A DNA stretch of 64,000 bases from an uncultured Methanomicrobiales archaeon (lineage in GTDB: Archaea; Halobacteriota; Methanomicrobia; Methanomicrobiales; Methanospirillaceae): the NCBI GenBank assembly GCA_963758915.1, contig CAVWXH010000003.1, positions 160,001 through 224,000 on the forward strand, read 5' to 3'. Position numbers and translations under genes: made by a program. The notes under the pieces were generated by a model that was not told the origin of the DNA, made no database searches, and worked only from the letters and a program-made list of their open reading frames with translations. Below, piece after piece: positions 658 to 27,510 of this stretch; the stretch's first letter is position 1, and every line of letters begins with the position of its first letter.

Positions 658-1608
658 TTAAGCACCGCCTCTCCAAATTCCTTTGTCCCAGACAGATCCT
701 CCAAGGTCCCGGGTCTTTATCCCCTTTGAAAATACCGTCTGAATCGCACATTCGATCGCATCCGACCCTGGATTATCCCCTGCATGCCGGAGCAGGAGCG
801 CTGCACTCCGCAATGCTGCAACAGGGTTTGCCAGATTCCGGCCCGCAATATCAGGAGCACTGCCGTGGACCGGTTCAAAAAATGCATGGCGTTCCCCGAT
901 GTTGGCACTGGGCAGCATACCAAGGCCACCGACGAGATACGCAGCAACATCCGACAGGATGTCCCCGAACATGTTCGTCGTCACGATAACATGGTACGAT
1001 GCCGGGTGGAGGAGCACATCCAGGCACAACGCATCAATGAGCCGGTCATTGCAATTCACCCCGGCAACCGACGCTTCGTGGAGGCATATGTCCCTGAAGA
1101 ATACGTCCGATTTCATCACGTTGGCTTTGTGGCCGATGGTCAGGGTCCTGCTCCCTGCAAGGTTGCAGGCAAACCGGGCGATACGCTCACATTCGTGGCG
1201 GGTAATGACCCGGAGCGTCGTCGCCCTGTCCACCCCCACCTCTTCGATCCCCGAGTAAAGACCTTCGATGTTCTCCCGCACAATGGTGATGTCAAACCCG
1301 TTGCCCTTCACCGGCCGTACATTGGCAAAGAGGTCGAGATCTTTTCGTATCCGAAGCAGCACGCTGCGGTAATCGGGAGCAGAAGGTGTTGTTATCGCAC
1401 CAAACAGGATGGCATCTGCCGATTTGAGCAATTCAAAGTCATCATCTCCCATCGCCTCGCCCGTCCGCTCCCACCGCTCGTACCCGACTTCCACCGGGAA
1501 TAATTCATACTCAGGGTGGAGCAGGGATAGCACATCCCTTGCAACGGGTATTACTTCCTTCCCGATACCGTCCCCGCATACGATTGCAACACTTCTGACG
1601 TTCGCCAT
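658..1608 (-). CDS. aksF: Isocitrate/isopropylmalate-family dehydrogenase, probable (homo)n-isocitrate dehydrogenase AksF
   Basis: GDGIGKEV, DLFANVRP, IVRENIEGLY, GHKANV, NMFGDILSD and FFEPVHGSAPDIAG motifs. ATG at 1608 has GGAG upstream. The C-terminus (GTKEFGEAVLKEL) is shifted by an indel near 700, so the end is approximate. Assigned as aksF rather than leuB from operon context. Confidence 0.8.
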   Translation of the reverse strand: MANVRSVAIVCGDGIGKEVIPVARDVLSLLHPEYELFPVEVGYERWERTGEAMGDDDFELLKSADAILFGAITTPSAPDYRSVLLRIRKDLDLFANVRPVKGNGFDITIVRENIEGLYSGIEEVGVDRATTLRVITRHECERIARFACNLAGSRTLTIGHKANVMKSDVFFRDICLHEASVAGVNCNDRLIDALCLDVLLHPASYHVIVTTNMFGDILSDVAAYLVGGLGMLPSANIGERHAFFEPVHGSAPDIAGRNLANPVAALRSAALLLRHAGDNPGSDAIECAIQTVFSKGIKTRDLGGSVWDKGIWRGGA

Positions 1609-2409
1609 TATTTCGATCTCCAGCCGTGTTACGAGGCCGTCGATGGCCTTGAGAATATCACGCGGCGTTGCACCCCAGTGGACAACCGCCCCGAATTTTC
1701 CATTATACCTGCCAATCCCGCCCCGTTCCTTCTGGCAGCACCGGGTGATGAACGGTTCTTCTGTGACAGTTCCGATGGGACAGATGTCGATCAGGGTAAA
1801 ATCATCCCCGTAACATTCCTGGTATATCCCGGAACTGGCCCTGCAGCCTGCTACCGTTTCACCACCAACCATCGGGTCTGCATCAAGAGTCCTCGGGAAA
1901 CCTGCCGCCCTGCAGGGGTGGACATCGGCACCGGTCTGCGAAATATCGGTGATATGGTGCACGAACCTGATATCAAGTTCCCCGAACAGCCCGATCGCCT
2001 CCAGCTCCTTTACCCGGTCTGACAGGACCGGGAGCGGGGGCTTCACGTCGTAGACATGAACGGTCAGCAGTGTTGCAGGGTCAGGGTCGAGCACGAATGT
2101 CACGTGTTCGTCGTGCCCGGAAAAGATAGTGCAGCGTCGCCCTGATTCCGTTGCAAGCCGGATGAGCCCGGCCCGGTTGGCGATATTGACCTGTTCCGGG
2201 TACCAGGTGACCTCATCCGCGGACGCTATCACTTCCTCGGCGATCACCTTCCTCATCAGCCCTTTTTCGGCGGGATCGGTTGTCACCCGGACGATCTCAT
2301 GGCCGGTACCAGTCTTGTGGATGAGGTACTGCGAGAGAAAATACACGCGTCTCCCGCACGGTTCCGTATCCGCATAGCCGATGTCTTTGTATTCACGGGG
2401 GAAGATCAT
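1608..2409 (-). CDS. Uncharacterised Cys-rich protein (about 265 aa)
   Basis: N-terminal part of ORF 658-2409 (VYFLSQYLI, HPCRAAG, AGC, ICP, TRCCQKER, VVHWGA). Its ATG overlaps the aksE stop (ATGA). A one-base shift near 1625 gives ...WRSK-TAA overlapping the aksF ATG (TAATG). Confidence 0.75.
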
Positions 2410-2879
2410 GGCTTCTTTGACCTCCAGAGGGGAACAAGCCCGCCTGCAAGAAGGATCTCCTTCATCCTTGCAGACAGGGGCCGGATTGGAGCACTGGAGC
2501 CTCCGCAGGAAACAACCCCTTTGTCAAGGTCAATGATCACCTCGTCGCCATCGGCACAGTGGCATTCCCCTTCAACAACCGGGAGTCCCACGTTTATGGC
2601 GTTACGGAAGAATATCCGGGAGAAGGAGGGGGCGACAACAGCCTGCAGCCCTGCTTCTTTAAGGGCAACGGCGGCCTGTTCGCGTGAAGACCCGCACCCG
2701 AAATTCCTGCCTGCAACAATGACCGATCCTTTGAGCCTGGCCCCGAGCGACGGGTCGAGGTCTTCGAATACATGTTCGACCCAGACCGTCCGGTCCTTTG
2801 TCCGGAGATACCTCCCGGCGATGATGACGTCGGTGTCGATATCGGGCCCAAGGCAGATCGCCTTCCCTTCAATGTGCAT
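2406..2879 (-). CDS. aksE: Homoaconitase small subunit (LeuD family)
   Basis: DIDTDVII and NFGCGSSREQA motifs. The flexible-loop sequence YLRT is the homoaconitase-type signature (IPM isomerases typically have YLVY-like loops). Confidence 0.85.
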   Translation of the reverse strand: MHIEGKAICLGPDIDTDVIIAGRYLRTKDRTVWVEHVFEDLDPSLGARLKGSVIVAGRNFGCGSSREQAAVALKEAGLQAVVAPSFSRIFFRNAINVGLPVVEGECHCADGDEVIIDLDKGVVSCGGSSAPIRPLSARMKEILLAGGLVPLWRSKKP

Positions 2880-2882
2880 GAT

Positions 2883-4091
2883 TCACGCCTCCGGGACGGT
2901 CAGGACGCCGGTCAGGGCGCTTGCTGCCGCCGTTGCAACCGAGGCGAGATACACGCTGCCACCAATACCCATCCGGTTCGTAAAATTACGGTTTGCCGTC
3001 GAGAGGCAGACTTCACCTTCCCCGATTACCCCCATATGTGCCCCGAGACAGGGGCCGCAGCCGGGTGTGCCGATCGTGCAGCCTGACGAGATAATGGTCG
3101 AGAGGACACCCGTATCGGCTGCTTTGCGGAGGACTTCCGCCGAGGACGGGATTACGATGGTCCTCACGTTCACCTTCTTACCCCGGACGATTGAAGCAAA
3201 ACGTTGTAAATCTTCAAAACGCCCGTTTGTGCAGGTACCGACAAACACCTGGTCAAGGGGCAGCCCTTCAAGCGATTCAACGGGTCTTGCCGAATCGACC
3301 CGTGGCGGCACGGCAACCACGGGGACAAGGTCCGACAAGTCAATCGTTATCTCTTTTCCATACGAGCAGTGCTCAGGTACCTGGTTTTCCACCCGGTGGC
3401 CGAACTGCAGGAGGTACTGGCGGGTCACGTCATCGGCATAAAAGAGGCCGGTTTTTGCACCGGCTTCAGTTGAAAGATTTGAAATGGTGAGCCGGCCTTC
3501 CATGGAGAGCGATTTCGTCCCGTCCCCGACATACTCTAATGCCTGGTAGGACGCTCCCTCCATGCCGAGCTGGGAAATAACCGTAAGGGCCAGGTCTTTC
3601 GCCTCAACCGGATAGTTCAATGTCCCTGACAGGTGGATGCCGATTGTTTCGGGAACACGGAACCACGTAGAACCCGATGCCCAGATGGCAGCCATATCGG
3701 TCGCCCCTACACCTGTTGCAAACGCACCGAATGCACCAAGGGTACAGGTGTGGGAATCGGCCCCGACCACGACCTCCCCGGGGAGCACCTCCCCTTCACC
3801 CATGAGCTGGTGACAGACACCGCCCCCGATATCGGAGAAATGGATCCCGTGTGACCTTGCAAACTCCCTGAGCTCCTTCTGGAGCGTCGCGGTAGTGCTG
3901 TTGTTTGCCGGGACGATGTGGTCGAAGAGGATATACAGTCGTTCCGGGTGCGCCGGGCCCGGGCAACCCATCTCCTTCCAGGCTTCGAGGGTGAGTACAC
4001 CGGTACCGTCATGCACGTATGCCCGGTCAACCTGTACATCGACATAGTCCCCGGCCCCTGCACCGAGGATCCGTTCGGAAAGCGTCCTCAT
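2883..4091 (-). CDS. aksD: Homoaconitase large subunit (LeuC family)
   Basis: FDHIVP, GVCHQ, GADSHTCTLGA, GTCTNGR, PGCGPCLG and STANRNF aconitase motifs. Confidence 0.85.
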   Translation of the reverse strand: MRTLSERILGAGAGDYVDVQVDRAYVHDGTGVLTLEAWKEMGCPGPAHPERLYILFDHIVPANNSTTATLQKELREFARSHGIHFSDIGGGVCHQLMGEGEVLPGEVVVGADSHTCTLGAFGAFATGVGATDMAAIWASGSTWFRVPETIGIHLSGTLNYPVEAKDLALTVISQLGMEGASYQALEYVGDGTKSLSMEGRLTISNLSTEAGAKTGLFYADDVTRQYLLQFGHRVENQVPEHCSYGKEITIDLSDLVPVVAVPPRVDSARPVESLEGLPLDQVFVGTCTNGRFEDLQRFASIVRGKKVNVRTIVIPSSAEVLRKAADTGVLSTIISSGCTIGTPGCGPCLGAHMGVIGEGEVCLSTANRNFTNRMGIGGSVYLASVATAAASALTGVLTVPEA

Positions 4092-5221
4092 GCCAGTGAC
4101 CCCTCTCCCTGGACTCTCTTAATCAGTTCAAGAAGGCGTTCGGGAGTAACCACCGTTTTGTGCTCCCCTTCAGTTTTCACCAGTTCAAGCACACGGCATA
4201 CCTGGCCTTTCGAAAGCTGGAACCCGAGTGCAGATACCACGTATTCGAGCGCCTTCGACCCGGTATGTTTCCCGAGAATGAATTTACGCTCGCCACCGAC
4301 CATTTCCGGGGAGAAATATTCGTACGTTTCCGGGTCCTGGAGAATTGCAGCGATATGGATGCCACTCTCGTGGGAAAACGCATGGGCACCCACGACCGGC
4401 TGGGTCCTTGCCACCGGAATATTGGATGCTTTTTCAACCAGTTTTGAGAGGTTCTGCAGGTGGGTGAGGTCATACCGTTCTACCCCTGCTTTCATGCGGA
4501 GGGCTACGAGAACAGACTCAAGGGGAGCGTTCCCCGCCCGTTCGCCAATGCCATTGACCGTTGTATGGAGCTGGAACGCCCCGGCCTCTGCAGCAGTAAT
4601 CGTGTTCGCCGCAGCGAAACCCATGTCGTTATGGCAGTGTGCACAGACCGGGACACGGACGGTTGATACGAGGTCCCCCATTACCTCGTACATCTCAAGC
4701 GGGGTGAGGCACCCGACCGTATCCGCAAAAGACAGGAGGTGGGCACCGTGGTCTTCACCCTGGCGAAATACTTCCTTTAAGAAACCACGGTCTGTCCGGG
4801 AGGCATCTTCAGCGGCAAACCGGACTGCAATCCCATGGTCGTGGACGAATTCAACGATACCAAGTGCCGCCGAAAGGACCTCCTCCCTTGGTTTTTTGTA
4901 TTTATGCCTGATATGGAGGTCAGAAGTTGCGATGAAAATACTGACCAGGTCTACATCGCAGTCTATCGCACACTCGGCGTCCTCTTTCCGGGCCCTTGCA
5001 AGGCAACAGACCCGTGCATCAAGGCCCATCGCTGCGATCTCGGTCACGCACTTTTTTTCTTCTGCTGATACGATGGGAAACCCGGCCTCGATTACTTCGA
5101 CCCCGACATCGTCGAGGACGCGGGCAATCGACTTCTTTTCATCGCAGGTGAATGATACACCCGGCGTCTGTTCTCCATCCCGGAGCGTCACATCGCAGAT
5201 TTCAACATTCCACGGTTTCAT
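4088..5221 (-). CDS. aksA: Homocitrate synthase-family enzyme AksA
   Basis: DVTLRDGEQTPG, HCHND, GIGERAGNA, AFSHESGIH and LGKHTG motifs. About 377 aa, with no LeuA regulatory domain. Confidence 0.85.
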   Translation of the reverse strand: MKPWNVEICDVTLRDGEQTPGVSFTCDEKKSIARVLDDVGVEVIEAGFPIVSAEEKKCVTEIAAMGLDARVCCLARARKEDAECAIDCDVDLVSIFIATSDLHIRHKYKKPREEVLSAALGIVEFVHDHGIAVRFAAEDASRTDRGFLKEVFRQGEDHGAHLLSFADTVGCLTPLEMYEVMGDLVSTVRVPVCAHCHNDMGFAAANTITAAEAGAFQLHTTVNGIGERAGNAPLESVLVALRMKAGVERYDLTHLQNLSKLVEKASNIPVARTQPVVGAHAFSHESGIHIAAILQDPETYEYFSPEMVGGERKFILGKHTGSKALEYVVSALGFQLSKGQVCRVLELVKTEGEHKTVVTPERLLELIKRVQGEGSLA

Positions 5222-6499
5222 GGTGTCTCCCTTCCGGACAGTTCCCTTCAATAATCACAACTACCGGCGATTCCCGGCGGACGAGAGTTTCCCGGAGGCG
5301 GGCTTCATCATCAGCCCGGCAGATTACGGGGTTGGCCCAGGCAATATAGGGGAGGATATCGTAGGCCTGCTGCCCACCGGTCATCCCCATGCAGTTGTTT
5401 TTCATTATTATGCACAGCAACGGGGTTTTTTTCTCAAACACGTCGATCAACGCAGGGAGCCCGGAATGAAGCAGTGCATAATCGCCGGTAAGTGCAACGC
5501 CCGTGCTTTTCGCAGCCACCCCGATTGAAGACCCCATGCCATAACTGACAAGGCTGGTTTTAAACGGCGGGTTCATGCAGAGGACGCAGCACCCTGCATC
5601 ACAGGTGACCAGAAATCCCCCGTTCGTCCAGGATCTTTATTGCCAGGATAAAGGGGCAGTCCTTGCAGAATGACCGGTAAAAACCACGGTCTTCCCTTCG
5701 CTCCGGTTCCGTGTATGCCGGGGGGTACCATCCTCCGGTGTTCCCTGACAAACGGTCTCCCAAGTTCTTTTACCTCTTTTAACCTGCCGAGCCCGCCGTA
5801 GGAGGATACACGGTAATTATTCTGGATATCTCCCCGGGAAGGGACTGGTTTATCCCCGGCCCCTGCAGCACCAACGAGGGCGGTTGTCCCGTTCATCCGG
5901 TTCAGTGGCGATTTTTCAGACCACTCACACATCGGTCCGAGCAGGTTTCTCGCCCGTTCAACCCTCCCTTTCATGGTGAGGTGTAACGGGGCAATCGTCC
6001 CGGTTTTTCCCTTTCTTTCGGCGTTCCCGGGGGTTACTTCTGCTTCGAGAAGGTCCGGGGTAAGGCGGAGGATCACGATCCTTGAAAATGATTCCGACGC
6101 CCTGAATGCCTCTTCTACGGCTTCGTGGATGTTATCCGGGCCGGGTTCTATTACCGGTACCTCGGCGAGTTCCCCGTAATATCTCGAGTCCTGGGCATTC
6201 TGGGACCCCTCGGCCACCGGGTCATCCCCGGCTACAATGACCACACCGGCGATAAGTCCCTGGGTAGTCGCCTCGACAAACGGGTCTGCACAGGCATTCA
6301 ACCCGACATTTTTGAGGATTACTGCGGCTCTCCTGCCGGAAAGCGAATCGCCAAGGGCATATTCTACTGCCACCTTCTCGTTTATGACCGATTCAGCACC
6401 TGTTTTTTCCAGCACCCCGCTGACAGGAAAACCGGGTACCCCGTAAAACCGGTCTGCGGCAGCAAGGAGTGCCTTCGTTATTGCATCTTCACCTTTCAT
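5202..6499 (-). CDS. Stand-alone thiamine-diphosphate enzyme, IorA-like (split by indels)
   Basis: GVPGFPVS, INEKVAVE, KNVGLNACADP and GDDPxxxGSQNAQDSR in the N-part. An alternate frame near 5650-5690 gives RSFCKDCP. The C-part has GMGSSIG and the ThDP motif GDYALLHSG...NNCMGMTGGQ. No ferredoxin domain and no iorB. Confidence 0.8.
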
Positions 6500-7464
6500 A
6501 GCGGCTCTCCCGGGACGAGGTCACAACCCCTGCACCGGACACACATGGTCAGGGCGTTCCGGGGGTCCAGTCCTTCATCCTGTAATGCTTTTTCATGATA
6601 TCCGGCAATCAGGAGCATCCGTTCAGCACCCGGCCTGCTGGAGCCGGAAAATCCTGCAATCGGGTTCAATGGCCTGATAACAGGAATTACCCCCATTGTT
6701 GTGAGTTCCCTGATACATGCATCCATCTCTTCATCCGTCTCTCCAAGGCCGAGAATTACGTTTGAAAACACGTGGCCGCGTCCGAATAACTCTACTGACT
6801 TCTGAAGGACCCGGATAATGAGATCACGGTCATGGCCCGGGCATAATGAGGCAAACAATTCCGGAGTGGCGCATTCAAGGTTGAACTTTACTTCCTTTAC
6901 CCCGAGTCCGTGCAGGCGGCCGGGTGTTTGTTCTGTCGGGTAAATTGAGACCCCGATCGGGAGACCGAACACTGCCAGGTCACGGACAACCTCGCAGACA
7001 TACTCTTCTTCCTCGTAAATGTCGGAATATACACCGCTTGTTATGGAGATTGCATCAATCCGGTCTTTTATTCCATCGACCATGGCATGGATTTCCTCGA
7101 TTGATTTTCTCCGCTTTGGCAGGCGCGGGACATTGCAGTAACGGCAATTGAAGATACAGCCGCTGCTGACGGTAATATAGGCCTGTTCCGGGCAGTGCAG
7201 GCCAACCGGGTCAAGCCGGCCGGGCAGCACAATTTCACCATAACGGAGTGTTGCAGCCCCTTCACCTGCATGGATAATTTCAACGGGGCTTGTCTCTGAA
7301 CGTGCAAACCGCACCCTCATACCATCGGATGAAAAGAAGACAGACCCTTCTCCCCCTGCGCCCGGACCTGCGGATGAACTCGAAAGGTAAGGAGTCGCAT
7401 CTTTTCCGGTGAGCCGTGCTTTTCCAACGGCAAGGAGGGCTGCTTTTAATTCCTGTCCGTGCAT
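6496..7464 (-). CDS. Radical SAM protein, biotin-synthase-related, with C-terminal CxxCxxC
   Basis: GCIFNCRYC (CxxxCxxC), SNVILGLGETDEE and a terminal CVRCRGCD. ATG at 7464 is preceded by GAGGAGG. The stop overlaps the ThDP gene start. Confidence 0.85.
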   Translation of the reverse strand: MHGQELKAALLAVGKARLTGKDATPYLSSSSAGPGAGGEGSVFFSSDGMRVRFARSETSPVEIIHAGEGAATLRYGEIVLPGRLDPVGLHCPEQAYITVSSGCIFNCRYCNVPRLPKRRKSIEEIHAMVDGIKDRIDAISITSGVYSDIYEEEEYVCEVVRDLAVFGLPIGVSIYPTEQTPGRLHGLGVKEVKFNLECATPELFASLCPGHDRDLIIRVLQKSVELFGRGHVFSNVILGLGETDEEMDACIRELTTMGVIPVIRPLNPIAGFSGSSRPGAERMLLIAGYHEKALQDEGLDPRNALTMCVRCRGCDLVPGEPL

Positions 7465-8340
7465 AAGGTCAGGGCCTCCTCGTATCTTCGTGTAAAACGG
7501 AATTGCCGCTACTGCACCAATGATCCCACGACCATTCCTCACGATCCGCAGGTTGATATCATCGATATCCAGGATCAATCCCTGCGTCACTTCGCCACGT
7601 TTCACCTTCCACGCGAATTCCAGGAGGTTTGAGGGGTCAAACCCCGTGTATACCGCCATGCCGGTATCTTCAGAAAGGGTATAGCGGTCCAGCAGTCCTG
7701 CAAAATGATCGACCAGGCGGGCAGGGTCCGATGATGCAAATTCGGCAACAATGCTGACACAGTTTTTTGTCCGGTACGGGACAGGGTACAACTGCACAAT
7801 CGTATGCGACAGGTAGCGGGACTGCTGGTCCTCAACAGCCCTCGCAATATTATGGACGAGTGTCCAGGTTGCCCCCTGTTCAGGTGTATCGGTATCGTCC
7901 ACGCCAATCAGGACACGCTGTCGCCTTGGCAGCCAGACTGTTGAACCGGCACGTTTTCCACCCCCGGAAGGGTCATTTGTACTTCGCGTAACACCCTGTG
8001 CATAGGAACGGCATATGGACGCACCGACACCACCGCCGCCAAGCCCTACGTAAGATACCCGGATTTCATCCTCATCAACGGAAACAGCACTTATTCCGGC
8101 CGGGAAATGTGAGCCCTCAAGTGCAAGGTCCGACTCCCCCGGGCGCAGCATGTACCGCATGGTCGGTCCGATATTCCTGGCAGAACGGACAAGCGGGCTC
8201 TGTGCATAATGGTGTTGTGCCCACATCGCACCCCCGGTACAATCGAAAAATTCGATCAGTTCGACACGTTCGCCGGCGGAATCCGCTACCGCGACAATCT
8301 GCGGGTACCGTATGATATACGGTTCAGGAAGGTTCACCAT
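7446..8340 (-). CDS. mmp11: Methanogenesis marker protein 11 (DUF1743/TiaS kinase-domain-like)
   Basis: IEFFDCTGGAMWAQHHY, GLGGGGVGASIC, IGVDDTDTPEQGATW, QLYPVPYRTKNC and GRGIIGAVAA motifs. Removing one A near 7487 gives ...PFYTRYEEALTLCTDRN-stop. Confidence 0.8.
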
Positions 8341-9283
8341 AGAGACCTGCCGCTTCGATGCCCCTGTTGGCCCATAATACAGACCCTAATGCACCAATTC
8401 TGCCCTTTCTTCCTGCAGTGTCGATAAACCTGATCCCGGCAGATGCCGCAATATCCTCGGCATCCTTCAGGCTTACGATCTCGGTCTTTATCCTCCGGCA
8501 GGCACCGTTCATTATTTTCGGGAATTCAATACCCCGGTAGTAGGCAATACCCGTGTCGTCACTGAAAGAAAACTCCTCGATATAATCGCGGACATAGGCA
8601 AGAAGTGCATCAACCGACCCGGGTCTGACGGCAAAATTCAACGCAGACCCCACGCAGTTGGTTGTTTTTTCCGGGACCCGCGGGTTGAGCTGGATCAGCC
8701 TCATATTAAGAAATTCCACGCCTGGTACCGGGCACTGTTCACCGCATTTCAGGGCAAGGACCCAGGTGGCTCCTTTTTCAGATGTGTCAGTGTCATCGAT
8801 CCCGATGGTGACCTTCTCGTATAGCGGTGAAAAAATACGTACCCGGTTCACCCTCGCACCGCCGACTACCAGGTCCTCTTCAGTCGGGTATTCAGCCCGG
8901 GTCACACCCGGTGCCTGCGGAAGGCAGGCAGCAATACCAAGACCGGCACCGGCAATACCTGCCCAGGATGTGACGACCTCGTCACCCTGCACCTCGACAC
9001 CTTCGAGGGCCTGGCCCCCGATATTCTCCCCGGCAGCCCCGAAATTCGCCTGAAATGAGCCGATTCGTGCCAGCATCCTCATTTCAGTGCCTTCAACACG
9101 GGCAGAGACTGTGGCCCCTTTTGCACGGATGCGGTTCATCGCGTCCCACTCGATAGGTCCCCTCGCATGGCACTGCTCGATGATCTCTGCAAGGCCGGCA
9201 CCCTTGTCCACCATCACGAGAAACCGCCGGGAAAAGAGTGATCCATACTTCGTTTTTATTTCTTCGGGCTTTTTGACAATCAT
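8324..9283 (-). CDS. Second, divergent Mmp11-like protein
   Basis: GIAGAGLGIAAC, IGIDDTDTSEKGATW, QLNPRVPEKTTNC and GRIGALG motifs. Same architecture as the downstream gene and overlaps its start. Confidence 0.75.
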   Translation of the reverse strand: MIVKKPEEIKTKYGSLFSRRFLVMVDKGAGLAEIIEQCHARGPIEWDAMNRIRAKGATVSARVEGTEMRMLARIGSFQANFGAAGENIGGQALEGVEVQGDEVVTSWAGIAGAGLGIAACLPQAPGVTRAEYPTEEDLVVGGARVNRVRIFSPLYEKVTIGIDDTDTSEKGATWVLALKCGEQCPVPGVEFLNMRLIQLNPRVPEKTTNCVGSALNFAVRPGSVDALLAYVRDYIEEFSFSDDTGIAYYRGIEFPKIMNGACRRIKTEIVSLKDAEDIAASAGIRFIDTAGRKGRIGALGSVLWANRGIEAAGLYGEPS

Positions 9284-9380: not shown

Positions 9381-10268
9381 TTAAAGGATTTTGTGGAGTT
9401 CGAACTTGAACGGCCCGAGCGTGCCACCATAGTTACCGGCGCTGATGAATTTTACGCCTTTTACCATGCAGGCGGCACGGATACCTGCTGCCATTGCCTC
9501 TGCAACTGCTGCTTCGGATACACCGTCAATGACGATTTCGAACACGCCATTAATGCCGTCCGGGATCTTGCTGTCCGGGACCTTGCTCTTCAGGGATGGA
9601 CAGTACAGTTCGTTTGTGCTGGCATTCATGAATTTATACTTCTTGCTGCCTACTTTCGAGCCGCTTCCGACAATCCCACCCGGGAATGACGTGATAACGC
9701 CACAGACTTCATTGACCGCAGCCACGGCGGCCTGTGCACCGACCAGTGCTGACATGGTGCTGTCACCCATGATAAAGAAATTGCCACCTGCAACACCCTT
9801 CACGACGCCAATCTCTTCTTCTGTCAGGAAATCTCCACCCATCAGGGGAATTGCCCATACACTCCGGTCTCCGACCTTGGTCTGGTATTCGTAGCCGTCA
9901 CCAAAGAAATGGAGTTTCATCGGGAGTTTTTCTTCGCAGTCAGTGATACCGTTAAACGCTGCGGTGGTTGGTGCAGTAAGCACACACTCTGCGATACGCT
10001 CAATCAGCTGCTCTTTTAATTTTTTCTTGCTCGGGTGGACAATAAGAATACCATATCCAGGCCTGCCGTCAGGGGTCTGCTGCGGGGGGACATACTGGTC
10101 AATACCTGCTTCTGCCGGACATGCGATAACCGATGTCCCGAACCCGGTCGCTTCGACTGCTGAACTGTATGCGAGTTCCTTCGTTGCAGCGGTAATGATT
10201 ACAGAGCTGACCCATGCGGGAAACGCTTCTGCAAACGTGTTGTCAATCTTTACACCGTTAATTTCCAT
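9381..10268 (-). CDS. ftr: Formylmethanofuran-tetrahydromethanopterin N-formyltransferase
   Basis: MEINGVKIDNTFAEAF, ATGFGTSVIACPAEAGI, TPDGRPG, FPGGIVGSGSKVGS and SAGNYGGTLG motifs. Confidence 0.97.
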   Translation of the reverse strand: MEINGVKIDNTFAEAFPAWVSSVIITAATKELAYSSAVEATGFGTSVIACPAEAGIDQYVPPQQTPDGRPGYGILIVHPSKKKLKEQLIERIAECVLTAPTTAAFNGITDCEEKLPMKLHFFGDGYEYQTKVGDRSVWAIPLMGGDFLTEEEIGVVKGVAGGNFFIMGDSTMSALVGAQAAVAAVNEVCGVITSFPGGIVGSGSKVGSKKYKFMNASTNELYCPSLKSKVPDSKIPDGINGVFEIVIDGVSEAAVAEAMAAGIRAACMVKGVKFISAGNYGGTLGPFKFELHKIL

Positions 10269-10780
10269 ATTCAAATACCTCGGACAAAGAATGTACCATG
10301 GCCGTGATAGAATAAATTTTCTAAGTGGTTTTCAAATTGTTGACAGGAGGACGGTAGTACATACGTGGCGGAAGTTACTCACGGATGGACGGGATAAGAT
10401 AACGGGTAATCCTTCGAACATGCAGATTACCACTATTTCTCCCGATAAATCAGCCCAGGATAACCCCGAAATAATCACAAATTATGCTGTAATTTTTGTT
10501 TTTACGCGATATTTCATCTGTAAATACCTCATCACAAAAAATCGAGTCGCATCCAATCATAAACCATATAATGCTATACACTAAAGGGCATAGTTTGCCA
10601 CCTGCCCGGGTTACAGGAAACGAAAGAAGTGAGAGAAACGCCGGGATGCCCCGGTTCGTCGAAGTATCACCGGGGTCTGGCTAAAGCCAGGGATTCCACA
10701 GAACCTGGAGTACCAGCCAACTATTATTACGGGCGACGGTGACCAGTGTCCTGTCACAATTATTTCCGTGGATTGTGAAG

Positions 10781-25824: not shown

Positions 25825-27510
25825 ATGGCAACAAAGAAAATCGAAAGAACCCAGAAGCTCTTCCTGAAGGCGCTCAAGACAAAATTCGCAGAGGACCCAC
25901 AGGCAACCCAGACCGTGTTCGCACGTGAAGGCCTGAAACAGTCCAAGAACAAGATGGATTTCGTCAAGGAAGGCCAGAAGGTAGCAATGGAACGTGGAAT
26001 CAGCCAGTACGACCCAATCCGCTGCCACCTTGGTGGTATCCCGCTCGGTCAGCGCCAGCTGATGACCTACGAAGTCTCCAACACCGGTGTCTTCGTTGAG
26101 GGTGATGACCTCCACTTCGTCAACAACGCTGCCATGCAGCAGATGTGGGACGACATCAGGAGGACCATCATCGTAGGACTCGACCTCGCTCACCAGACCC
26201 TCCAGAAGCGTCTCGGTAAGGAAGTCACCCCTGAGACCATCAACGAGTACCTCCACGTACTGAACCACGCAATGCCCGGTGCAGCCGTCGTTCAGGAACA
26301 CATGGTCGAGACTCACCCATCCCTCGTTGACGACTGTTACGTCAAGGTATTTACCGGCGACGACGAGATGGCAGACGACATCGAGCCACAGTTCCTGATC
26401 AACGTTGAGAAGCTCTTCCCAGGCAAGAGTGCAGAGGCACTCAAGGCCGCAGTCGGCAAGTCAATGTACCAGGCAGTTCACATCCCAACAACCGTATCAA
26501 GGACCTGCGATGGTGGGACCACCTCAAGATGGTCAGCCATGCAGATCGGTATGTCATTCATCGGAGCCTACCACATGTGCGCCGGTGAAGCAGCAACCGC
26601 AGACCTTGCATACGCCGCAAAGCACGCCGGTGTCATCCAGATGGCCGACATCCTGCCAGCCCGCCGTGCCCGTGGTCCAAACGAGCCCGGTGGTATCAAG
26701 TTCGGTCACTTCGCCGATATGATCCAGGGCGACCGCAAGTACCCGAACGACCCGGTCCGTGCAGCCCTTGAGGTTGTCGGTGCAGGAGCAATGCTCTTCG
26801 ACCAGATCTGGCTCGGGTCCTACATGTCCGGTGGTGTCGGGTTCACACAGTATGCAACCGCAGCATACACCGACAACATCCTCGACGACTACACCTACTA
26901 CGGTATGGACTATGTAAAGTCCAAGTACGGTGGAGCCGGCAAGGTACCATGCAAGCAGGACGCAGTCAACGATGTTGCAACTGAAGTCACGCTCTATGGT
27001 ATGGAACAGTACGAACAGTACCCGACTGCACTCGAGACCCACTTCGGTGGCTCACAGCGTGCATCCGTACTCGCAGCAGCAGCAGGTCTGTCAGCTTCAA
27101 TCGGTACCGGAAACTCCAATGCCGGTCTGAACGCCTGGTACATGTCGATGCTCCTGCACAAGGAAGGATGGTCACGTCTCGGCTTCTTCGGCTACGACCT
27201 GCAGGACCAGTGCGGTTCAGCAAACTCGATGGCTATCAGAGGCGACGAGGGTTGTATCGGAGAACTCCGTGGACCAAACTACCCGAACTACGCAATGAAC
27301 GTCGGTCACCAGGGAGAGTACGCAGCAATTGCAGCCGCAGCTCACTACGGACGCAAGGACGCATGGACCCTCAGCCCCCTGATCAAGATCTGTTTCGCAG
27401 ACCCCTCGCTCAAGTTCGACTTCTCCGAACCACGCAGAGAGTTCGCAAAGGGTGCAATCCGCGAGTTCATGCCCGCCGGAGAGCGCTCACTGATCATACC
27501 AGCAAGGTAA
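25825..27510 (+). CDS. mcrA: Methyl-coenzyme M reductase alpha subunit
   Basis: [52 protein letters not shown] and YAMNVGHQ motifs. Confidence 0.99.

Follow-up and report, generated by a model that had tools for sequence, protein, structure and literature searches.

What do two adjacent, paralogous genes of a methanogen encode when both resemble a kinase known from tRNA modification? This question is raised by a 64,000-nucleotide (nt) stretch of DNA, referred to here as the window, from an uncultured Methanomicrobiales archaeon (assembly GCA_963758915.1, contig CAVWXH010000003.1, positions 160,001 to 224,000). The genes code for a canonical member of the Mmp11 family and for a divergent paralogue, here called Mmp11A, and both proteins carry a domain like that of the tRNA(Ile2) agmatinylcytidine synthetase TiaS. 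The fold, gene context and distribution of the family suggest that it probably belongs to the pathway of coenzyme B (CoB) or of a closely related thiol cofactor. By analogy with TiaS, the Mmp11-family enzymes may serve as a ligase and/or a kinase in late CoB synthesis, applying TiaS-type chemistry to a small molecule, a reading to which a probability of about 0.5 is assigned.

Every methyl- and alkyl-coenzyme M reductase needs CoB, and we know of no enzyme that has been assigned to the last steps of its synthesis (decarboxylation, formation of the threonine amide and phosphorylation) since the pathway was outlined around 1990. In the full-text literature, a body from which most subscription journals are excluded, no function was found to be assigned to Mmp11 (TIGR03280), Mmp4 or DUF7714, and nothing was found that links TiaS to CoB or that deals with late CoB enzymes. 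CoB thiolation still counts as an unsettled step in the accessible part of a 2025 preprint (10.1101/2025.02.10.637553). In the available portion of a paper on HdrED depletion, up-regulation is reported only for the AksA-type gene MA4615 and the neighbours of MA4615 are passed over, while the accessible parts of a comparative genomic study of anaerobic methanotrophic archaea (PMC9012536) and of a paper on Methanocellales (PMC11176372) do not discuss late CoB genes. The candidates put forward by this study are a thiamine pyrophosphate (TPP) enzyme resembling either the alpha subunit of indolepyruvate ferredoxin oxidoreductase (IOR) or acetolactate synthase (ALS), Mmp11, Mmp11A, Mmp4, DUF7714 and a radical S-adenosylmethionine (SAM) enzyme.

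Two tandem paralogues with a TiaS-type kinase domain

The two paralogues can be aligned along their whole length (28% identity across 310 columns, E 3e-23), and the stop of the Mmp11A gene overlaps the start of the Mmp11 gene by 17 nt. The preliminary description of the locus, made from the DNA letters alone, had reported two open reading frames (ORFs) with the motifs IG[IV]DDTD, QLxP...[KR]TxNC and GxIGA and a Gly-rich N-terminal domain, and all of these features were found. Mmp11A carries TIGIDDTDTSEKGATW, IQLNPRVPEKTTNC and GRIGALG, with the Gly-rich stretch WAGIAGAGLGIA; the corresponding segments of Mmp11 are LIGVDDTDTPEQGATW, VQLYPVPYRTKNC and GIIGAVA, with the Gly-rich stretch YVGLGGGGVGAS. 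The DDTD, GATW, KTxNC and GxIGA motifs are thus kept in both proteins. Among 31 canonical Mmp11 members, G99, G102, D148-D151, G156, T158, T191, N193, G272 and G275 are invariant, which identifies the motifs as family signatures and excludes chance.

Mmp11 scores 330.6 bits with the TIGR03280 model (cut-off 255.8), the match covering residues 12-285 of ORF 6496-8340, and is therefore a canonical member. Mmp11A stays below the same cut-off at 200.1 bits, with a match to model positions 4-289, that is, the full length. Both proteins are recognized by the Pfam model TiaS_TCKD (PF22641), with E-values of 1.2e-12 for Mmp11 and 4.7e-11 for Mmp11A.

AlphaFold2 models of the two proteins, built from family alignments, reached pLDDT values of 92.8 (Mmp11) and 94.1 (Mmp11A). 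Foldseek matched both to the TiaS structure 3amt_A (E 3.3e-7 and 2.0e-8, respectively), and VIA-align superposed Mmp11 on the same structure with Z 20.0 and an rmsd (root-mean-square deviation) of 2.1 over 145 residues, corresponding to model residues 140-284; the next-best match, 3u02, had Z 14.8. The kinase fold that the preliminary description had recognized is confirmed by these models. In both of them, the match to TiaS is confined to the C-terminal 150 residues or so. The family profile also matches TiaS (E 1.2e-15), placing DDTD on TiaS residues 8-11 and the threonine of GATW on residue 18 (4rvz_Z), which we take to be the autophosphorylated threonine of TiaS. The proteins thus have a TCKD domain with both DDTD and a threonine at the residue-18 position, as TiaS-type kinases do. 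With the full-length TiaS model NF040849 (at least 600 bits for membership) they score only 19.7 and 39.9 bits, and only positions 2-151 of its 422 are matched.

The N-terminal domain of about 140 residues contains an element of strand, Gly-rich loop and helix (strand 92-100, helix 101-112) with an invariant GxGGxxV loop. No clear match to this domain was obtained with Foldseek against the Protein Data Bank (PDB) or in a wide VIA-align search, in which the matches below Z 8 all lay at residues 139-284, and a search of a protein atlas with Mmp11 residues 1-138 gave no usable match.

TiaS is said, in work of Terasaka and of Osawa from 2011, to phosphorylate a carbonyl oxygen that is then attacked by an amine, and also to phosphorylate a threonine. 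Chemistry of this kind matches the needs of the last two CoB steps. Since TiaS, the sole characterised relative, acts as a kinase on both tRNA and protein, modification of a macromolecule, either a methanogen tRNA or rRNA nucleoside or a residue of methyl-coenzyme M reductase, has also to be considered. Such a role is highly improbable, given that the short match to the TiaS model leaves out the tRNA-binding part, that the genome encodes a separate full-length TiaS elsewhere (matching NF040849 positions 5-413), that the conserved neighbours of Mmp11 are small-molecule enzymes and that Mmp11 occurs in organisms without McrA.

The gene cluster in this genome and order

Mmp11A and Mmp11 belong to a run of ten genes on the same strand, in the order Ftr-Mmp11A-Mmp11-radical SAM-TPP-AksA-AksD-AksE-DUF7714-AksF (Table 1). 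The order from Mmp11 to AksF is identical in all eight loci examined from eight genomes of the same order, six of which also have Mmp11A and six Ftr. A profile search of genome contigs with a small Mmp11 alignment returned 80 loci, all of them from Methanomicrobiales, and the best 120 matches of a homologous-protein search were all to close relatives.

Table 1. Features of the locus, with positions numbered from the first letter of the window.
Feature	Position	Strand	Remarks
Ftr (formylmethanofuran--tetrahydromethanopterin formyltransferase)	9381..10274	(-)	NF002554 440 bits; upstream neighbour
Mmp11A	8324..9283	(-)	319 aa (amino acids); N-terminal Gly-rich domain and C-terminal TiaS-TCKD-like domain
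Canonical Mmp11, residues 1-284	7487..8340	(-)	TIGR03280 330.6 bits
Surplus single base	7486..7489	(-)	shifts Mmp11 frame into radical SAM frame, giving ORF 6496-8340
Radical SAM enzyme	6496..7464	(-)	322 aa from ATG 7464; PF04055 2.3e-15
Short TPP enzyme, IOR alpha subunit-like	5202..6499	(-)	broken here: 5573-6499 and 5202-5576
AksA-type homocitrate synthase	4088..5251	(-)	387 aa; HMGL-like and HCS_D2; without C-terminal regulatory domain
AksD-type homoaconitase large subunit	2883..4091	(-)	HacA_Meth 418.8 vs LEU2 389.9 bits, both below cut-off
AksE-type homoaconitase small subunit	2406..2879	(-)	HacB2_Meth 166.3 bits, best equivalog; YLRT loop
DUF7714 protein, distantly XcbA-like	1609..2409	(-)	PF24830 297 bits; between AksE and AksF
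AksF-type homoisocitrate dehydrogenase	658..1608	(-)	Iso_dh 7.1e-85; AksF2_Meth 285.5 vs leuB 208.3 bits

The identity of the Aks genes rests on their best equivalogs, which are Aks types though all below cut-off, on Leu-type paralogues elsewhere in the genome and on the YLRT loop of AksE, presumably a homoaconitase signature. AksE, for instance, falls short of the HacB2_Meth cut-off (NF040625, at least 230 bits) and scores lower still with leuD (139.5 bits), while passing the cut-off of the LEUD_arch subfamily; contig 16 has a second gene of the LeuD type. Two longer AksA paralogues (open frames of 503 and 511 aa) are likewise found elsewhere in the genome.

The short TPP enzyme combines an N-terminal IOR_alpha match with TPP_enzyme_C and is a single ORF of about 423 aa in relatives. 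No ferredoxin domain was present among the Pfam matches of an intact copy (locus L016). The enzyme is a candidate 2-oxosuberate decarboxylase. The DUF7714 protein scores 83.1 bits with the model of the XcbA family (NF052538, cut-off 150) and so remains outside that family. XcbA is described, in the accessible part of PMC9457059, as a [2Fe-2S] thioaldehyde reductase that catalyses the last step of bacterial coenzyme M (CoM) synthesis, and DUF7714 is accordingly put forward as a candidate thioaldehyde reductase for the thiol-forming step of CoB synthesis. If these assignments hold, the cluster plausibly covers 2-oxosuberate synthesis, decarboxylation to 7-oxoheptanoate and thiol formation.

The radical SAM gene is preceded by GGAGG 9 nt upstream of its ATG. 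Its product has PF04055 together with the CX3CX2C motif (CIFNCRYC), which places it in the radical SAM superfamily, and a conserved C-terminal CxxCxxC. It matches the variant_rSAM, MSMEG_0568 and LipS2 models weakly; with the MSMEG_0568 model TIGR04043 (cut-off 303.7 bits or more) it reaches only 55.9 bits, compared with 231-305 bits for the Mmp11-adjacent radical SAM proteins of other lineages.

The window also contains mcrA, at 25852-27504 (G000:C3:185852-187504), about 16 kb from the cluster.

Gene context in other lineages

Across the phylum, in which families are referred to by f-numbers, gene context was surveyed at 20 loci in 18 genomes. An IOR-alpha-like TPP enzyme directly follows Mmp11 in all six f7 loci and in the single f23 locus. 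One f14 locus holds Mmp11, TPP, AksA, AksD, AksE, AksF and DUF7714 together, and in another f14 genome Mmp11 is followed by a radical SAM gene. The radical SAM protein that accompanies Mmp11 in f8 and f16 is of the MSMEG_0568-like kind (231-275 bits). None of the TPP, Aks, DUF7714 or radical SAM neighbours was seen at the f10 loci or at one f16 locus.

More distant contexts were provided by 80 metagenome contigs found with an alignment of Methanosuratincola-type Mmp11, in which the Mmp11 copies tested were canonical (336.7 and 421.1 bits). Mmp11 has Aks genes as neighbours in 46 of these 80 loci; among the 57 loci of 8 kb or more, the figure is 43. Several arrangements were distinguished: AksD-AksE-AksF-...-Mmp11 (26 loci), AksA-Mmp4-AksD-AksE-x-Mmp11 (10 loci with Mmp4), AksA-x-Mmp11 (five loci) and triplets of radical SAM, Mmp11 and Mmp4 genes (three loci). 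Because the metagenome loci are related to one another, their counts overstate independence, and it is more telling how many distinct arrangements occur. In the two loci examined, gene x encodes an ALS-family TPP enzyme directly upstream of Mmp11 that scores far below the ALS cut-offs; it belongs to another TPP family than the IOR-alpha-like enzyme of the window and occupies the same place beside Mmp11.

The preliminary description had suggested a link to CoB. It is supported by the association with Aks, TPP, DUF7714 and Mmp4 genes, and by co-occurrence, in the order, in other families and in metagenome contigs, so that the gene context behind it is now much stronger than what was visible within the sequence described at first.

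Two further associations were observed in the distant Aks-Mmp11 clusters (L144:10929-12116, L161:8105-9304). A GMC/FAD oxidoreductase gene directly follows Mmp11, and both RibH and a class-V aminotransferase (cysteine desulfurase-like) are encoded between AksF and Mmp11.

Phyletic distribution

The distribution of the family was surveyed across the phylum in a sample of 151 genomes with a completeness of 90% or more. Canonical Mmp11 is present in 74 and McrA in 90 of them; 68 have both, six Mmp11 only and 22 McrA only. The description of TIGR03280, as we take it, has the family found only in methanogens, and Mmp11 had been introduced as a methanogen marker in the preliminary description. This proved not to be strict, as six of the 74 carriers lack McrA and 22 McrA-bearing genomes lack Mmp11.

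Mmp11 coincides far more closely with Mmp4/MtxX: 73 genomes have both proteins, one has Mmp11 only, three have Mmp4 only and 74 have neither. One of the Mmp4-only genomes carries, directly adjacent to Mmp4, an Mmp11-like gene that scores 233.7 bits. In f8, the same six of 24 genomes carry both proteins, and in the single carrier genome of f15 and that of f17 the two genes are adjacent. This co-occurrence supports a role of Mmp11 in late CoB synthesis. DUF7714 was detected in 65 of the 74 Mmp11-bearing genomes and in not one of the 77 that lack Mmp11. Families f8, f16 and f17 do not have it, and the Methanocaldococcus jannaschii control gave no DUF7714 match. Apart from one 493-aa case in f19, the short TPP enzyme is limited to f1-f7, f10, f14 and f23. 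Homologues of the radical SAM protein of the window are spread more widely, about six of 19 f15 genomes included, and often occur in two copies.

McrA-bearing genomes from f15, f12, f20 and f27, such as G039, G103, G036, G047 and G170, have no Mmp11, Mmp4 or DUF7714.

Some McrA-less genomes have the radical SAM partner along with Mmp4 and canonical Mmp11. This would also suit a cluster that makes some other derivative of 2-oxosuberate or of a different 2-oxoacid, for example pimelate for biotin or a further thiol or amide cofactor, and the radical SAM protein is faintly BioB- and LipA-like. We consider such a product very unlikely. McrA accompanies canonical Mmp11 in 68 of 74 genomes, the neighbours in the window are Aks genes, an XcbA-like reductase and Ftr, with mcrA about 16 kb away, and the radical SAM protein scores 24 bits with a BioB model whose cut-off is 225.

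At four loci (L110 in G084, L109 in G070, L187 and L205) where no McrA was detected, canonical Mmp11 stands with an MSMEG_0568-like radical SAM gene. Their neighbours include cysteate synthase-like, fused ComDE-like and thioredoxin reductase-like genes, and Mmp4 is found elsewhere in the same genomes. There are hints, then, that a CoM/CoB-type thiol is made outside methane metabolism in the McrA-less carriers of Mmp11.

Mmp11A compared with Mmp11

In a quick tree of seven Mmp11A representatives and 38 canonical sequences, Mmp11A formed a separate clade. It adjoins Mmp11 in 23 of 31 genomes of the order and is missing from six of 29 that carry Mmp11, two of these absences having been confirmed at the locus. 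Outside the order, it was found in the 151-genome sample only in f14, where it is unlinked from Mmp11 and adjoins Mmp4 in all ten genomes (the families were confirmed in two). The other Mmp11-bearing families sampled have one copy each. The suggestion of the preliminary description that each paralogue performs one of the two last CoB steps cannot be general, since the copy-number survey found most Mmp11-bearing genomes to be single-copy.

DDTD, GATW, KTTNC and GxIGA are kept in all 14 A-type sequences compared. The subfamilies differ in their own conserved residues, with N50/R51 in Mmp11A compared with H/Y, L121 compared with a canonical R, and T208 compared with Q; in addition, the N-terminal domain of Mmp11A has a three-residue GQA insert. 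As the core is kept and conserved N-terminal residues are changed, Mmp11A is read here as a sub-specialised second enzyme or a partner. Such a pattern would be less expected of a dead partner than of a second enzyme that binds a different ligand.

A quite unlikely alternative is that Mmp11A is a partner or regulatory subunit, which would form a heterodimer with Mmp11 (or Mmp4) and tune a single reaction. The 17-nt gene overlap and the apparent dispensability of Mmp11A in the six genomes of the order would suit this, and complex prediction gives it weak backing: for Mmp11 with Mmp11A the median ipSAE was 0.58 (0.64, 0.58 and 0.45 in separate runs), as against 0.00 for the best of three controls, with at least 78% of contacts in common between runs and partner pLDDT of at least 82. 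Of 80 solved complexes, 58 reached the pass mark for ipSAE, as did two of 110 mismatched pairs. Passes at 0.60 or lower, however, comprised only seven of those 80 complexes and both mismatches, so that a pass in this range is more often wrong unless the pairing is likely beforehand. Furthermore, close paralogues can pass such a test through a homodimer interface. The heterodimer raised in the preliminary description has weak computational backing, and the score may be explained by the homodimer interface of the family. The catalytic motifs retained in all 14 A-type sequences argue for catalysis, and the separation of Mmp11A from Mmp11, beside Mmp4, in f14 also speaks against a dedicated subunit of Mmp11.

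A third Mmp11-like paralogue of 374 aa was observed on contig 3 of the same genome (L003:1438-2562), about 41 kb past the end of the window. It has an N-terminal TrmB-type helix-turn-helix domain, scores 118 bits with TIGR03280 and directly follows a 328-aa ORF whose sequence, by eye, resembles homoserine dehydrogenase. Copies of this paralogue are also found in McrA-less families (f9, all four genomes sampled).

An apparent fusion of Mmp11 and the radical SAM protein

In the sequence as it stands, the frame from 8340 is open down to 6496 and would encode a 614-aa protein consisting of Mmp11 and the radical SAM domain. The preliminary description had placed the two genes at 7446-9283. The upper end is correct; the lower end corresponds to a TAA at 7448-7446 that is out of frame here and can be used only when the surplus base at 7486-7489 is discounted. 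That TAA is nevertheless the normal stop of the family: relatives have about 13 further codons beyond residue 284 and end in YEEALTLCTDRN followed by the stop at the equivalent place.

Among 29 genomes of the order with canonical Mmp11, the long open frame (629 aa) was seen only in this one, the others having frames of 297-415 aa. The surplus base is absent from all five correctly aligned loci of the same genus (rows L014 and L015 were left out of this count), from the two closest contigs of metagenome-assembled genomes (L025 and L027) and from all five contigs of relatives that span the site, which came from three of four sequencing runs, the fourth giving no cover there. Its absence from all relatives examined makes an assembly error probable. 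Compared with both L025 and L027, further single surplus bases were found at 5611, which splits the TPP gene into two ORFs, and at 1627, which fuses DUF7714 in frame to AksF, and three such bases within 10 kb point to indel errors of the assembly. This strain was in none of the public sequencing runs, where the best word share was 0.10, and no RNA data set was listed for it. The comparison with relatives makes it quite probable that the 614-aa fusion is an assembly artefact. Its use as a natural 'Rosetta stone' for the two proteins was therefore rejected, as the surplus base occurs in none of the relatives examined and two more indels lie nearby. The stop of Mmp11 and the start of the radical SAM gene overlap in relatives, as would suit translational coupling.

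The assembly appears to be indel-prone, and caution is advisable with other odd ORF boundaries in this genome.

Proposed function

From the observed fold, motifs, gene context and co-occurrence we infer the following substrates, chemistry and division of labour. AksA, AksD, AksE and AksF would build 2-oxosuberate, which the short TPP enzyme would decarboxylate to 7-oxoheptanoate. The aldehyde would then be converted to a thiol, with the XcbA-like DUF7714 protein as the likely thioaldehyde reductase. An Mmp11-type enzyme with ATP may turn the heptanoyl carboxylate into an acyl phosphate, to be displaced by the amine of threonine to give the amide, and/or may phosphorylate the threonine hydroxyl of 7-mercaptoheptanoylthreonine. 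The phosphotransacylase-fold protein Mmp4/MtxX may assist in transferring the acyl group to threonine. In genomes with a single Mmp11, the lone copy would perform whatever the family does; in the lineage studied here, duplication would have given rise to Mmp11A, which may be either a partner subunit or a second, more specialised enzyme. A more elaborate scheme, in which the Mmp11 kinases and Mmp4 together constitute a CoB synthetase, with formation of 7-mercaptoheptanoyl phosphate and phosphorylation of the threonine hydroxyl shared in this lineage between Mmp11 and Mmp11A and acyl transfer left to Mmp4, is tentative and in our judgement rather doubtful.

Several observations weigh against the ligase and/or kinase assignment. 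The 22 of 90 McrA-bearing genomes without Mmp11 (17 from f15, two each from f12 and f20, one from f27) must make or obtain CoB otherwise, and in all five that were rechecked the sole Mmp11-family match was a genuine TiaS. Conversely, none of the five rechecked Mmp11-only genomes had McrA at E 0.01. Mmp11A is dispensable, as its absence from six of 29 genomes of the order indicates, and the predicted heterodimer may merely reflect a family homodimer interface, the two chains being paralogous. The number of LeuD/AksE-type subunits, tried as a proxy for the Aks pathway, was uninformative: two were found in f8 genomes both with Mmp11 (three checked) and without it (five checked), and f12 also has two, as against only one in f15 (two of two) and f27 (one of one). 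Two metagenome loci have the arrangement Mmp11-radical SAM-cysteate synthase(-ComDE), and in one of the McrA-less families Mmp11 and the radical SAM gene likewise stand next to cysteate synthase and ComDE-like genes, which points to CoM chemistry; CoM needs neither an amide nor a phosphate. Finally, neither the ligase/kinase assignment nor a role in thiolation accounts for the part played by the radical SAM partner.

On another view, Mmp11 and its radical SAM partner carry out an aldehyde-to-thiol step common to CoB and CoM. Here the carbonyl oxygen of 7-oxoheptanoate or sulfoacetaldehyde would be phosphorylated for attack by sulfur, in the manner of YcaO thioamide formation, and no amide or phosphate ester would be made. 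Three unrelated types of aldehyde-releasing TPP enzyme (IOR-alpha-like, ALS-like and ComDE-like) stand directly beside Mmp11, the radical SAM protein combines its C-terminal CxxCxxC with a weak likeness to the sulfur-inserting LipS2, LipA and BioB, and the XcbA-like putative thioaldehyde reductase lies within the cluster. However, aldehydes and sulfide react without activation by ATP, and Mmp4, which tracks Mmp11, would have no obvious role. In Methanosarcina, moreover, the accessible part of the preprint noted above assigns aldehyde thiolation to MMP16, with L-ASST as a back-up and the likely CoB route (10.1101/2025.02.10.637553). A thiolation function of this kind is on balance unlikely.

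If Mmp11-family enzymes are indeed late CoB ligases and/or kinases, the finding would complete the route to a cofactor that is central to methane production worldwide, provide targets for methanogen-specific inhibitors and show the TiaS kinase fold acting on a small molecule. It would also follow that McrA-less archaea with Mmp11, Mmp4 and the radical SAM protein produce CoB, or a thiol resembling it, for some use outside methane metabolism, and that McrA-bearing lineages without Mmp11 and Mmp4 acquire or build CoB differently. What this locus adds is the tandem Mmp11A and its link to Mmp4 in f14, together with TPP neighbours that are not orthologous and explicit exceptions to the occurrence expected of a 'marker'.

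Comparison with known systems

Within TIGR03280, annotated as JGI 'methanogenesis imperfect marker protein 11', the Mmp11 of the window lies inside the cut-off, whereas Mmp11A lies below it in a clade of its own. The model of the XcbA family covers nearly the whole DUF7714 protein, although the score is below the family cut-off, and the proposed substrates differ: 7-thioxoheptanoate for DUF7714, compared with sulfoethanethioaldehyde for XcbA.

ATP-grasp ligases form amides via an acyl phosphate and the L-threonine kinase PduX phosphorylates the hydroxyl of threonine, which are the very reactions proposed here. The ATP-grasp amide ligases of methanogen cofactors and PduX have folds unrelated to that of Mmp11, and none of them was seen in the cluster.

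The best sequence/profile match is 3u02 from Pyrococcus furiosus (E 1.5e-23 with the family profile), a stand-alone protein of 252 aa from structural genomics. Like Mmp11, it is a short TCKD protein without the tRNA-binding half; unlike Mmp11, it has no N-terminal Gly-rich domain, the match starting at about residue 141 of Mmp11. In TiaS, the part past the TCKD/FLD region binds the tRNA through an OB fold and a zinc ribbon. Mmp11 shares with TiaS (PDB 3amt, 3amu and 4rvz) the TCKD fold over about 145-150 residues together with DDTD, K-T-x-N and G-x-I-G-A, has no counterpart of TiaS beyond the TCKD/FLD region, and carries instead its N-terminal domain of about 140 residues.

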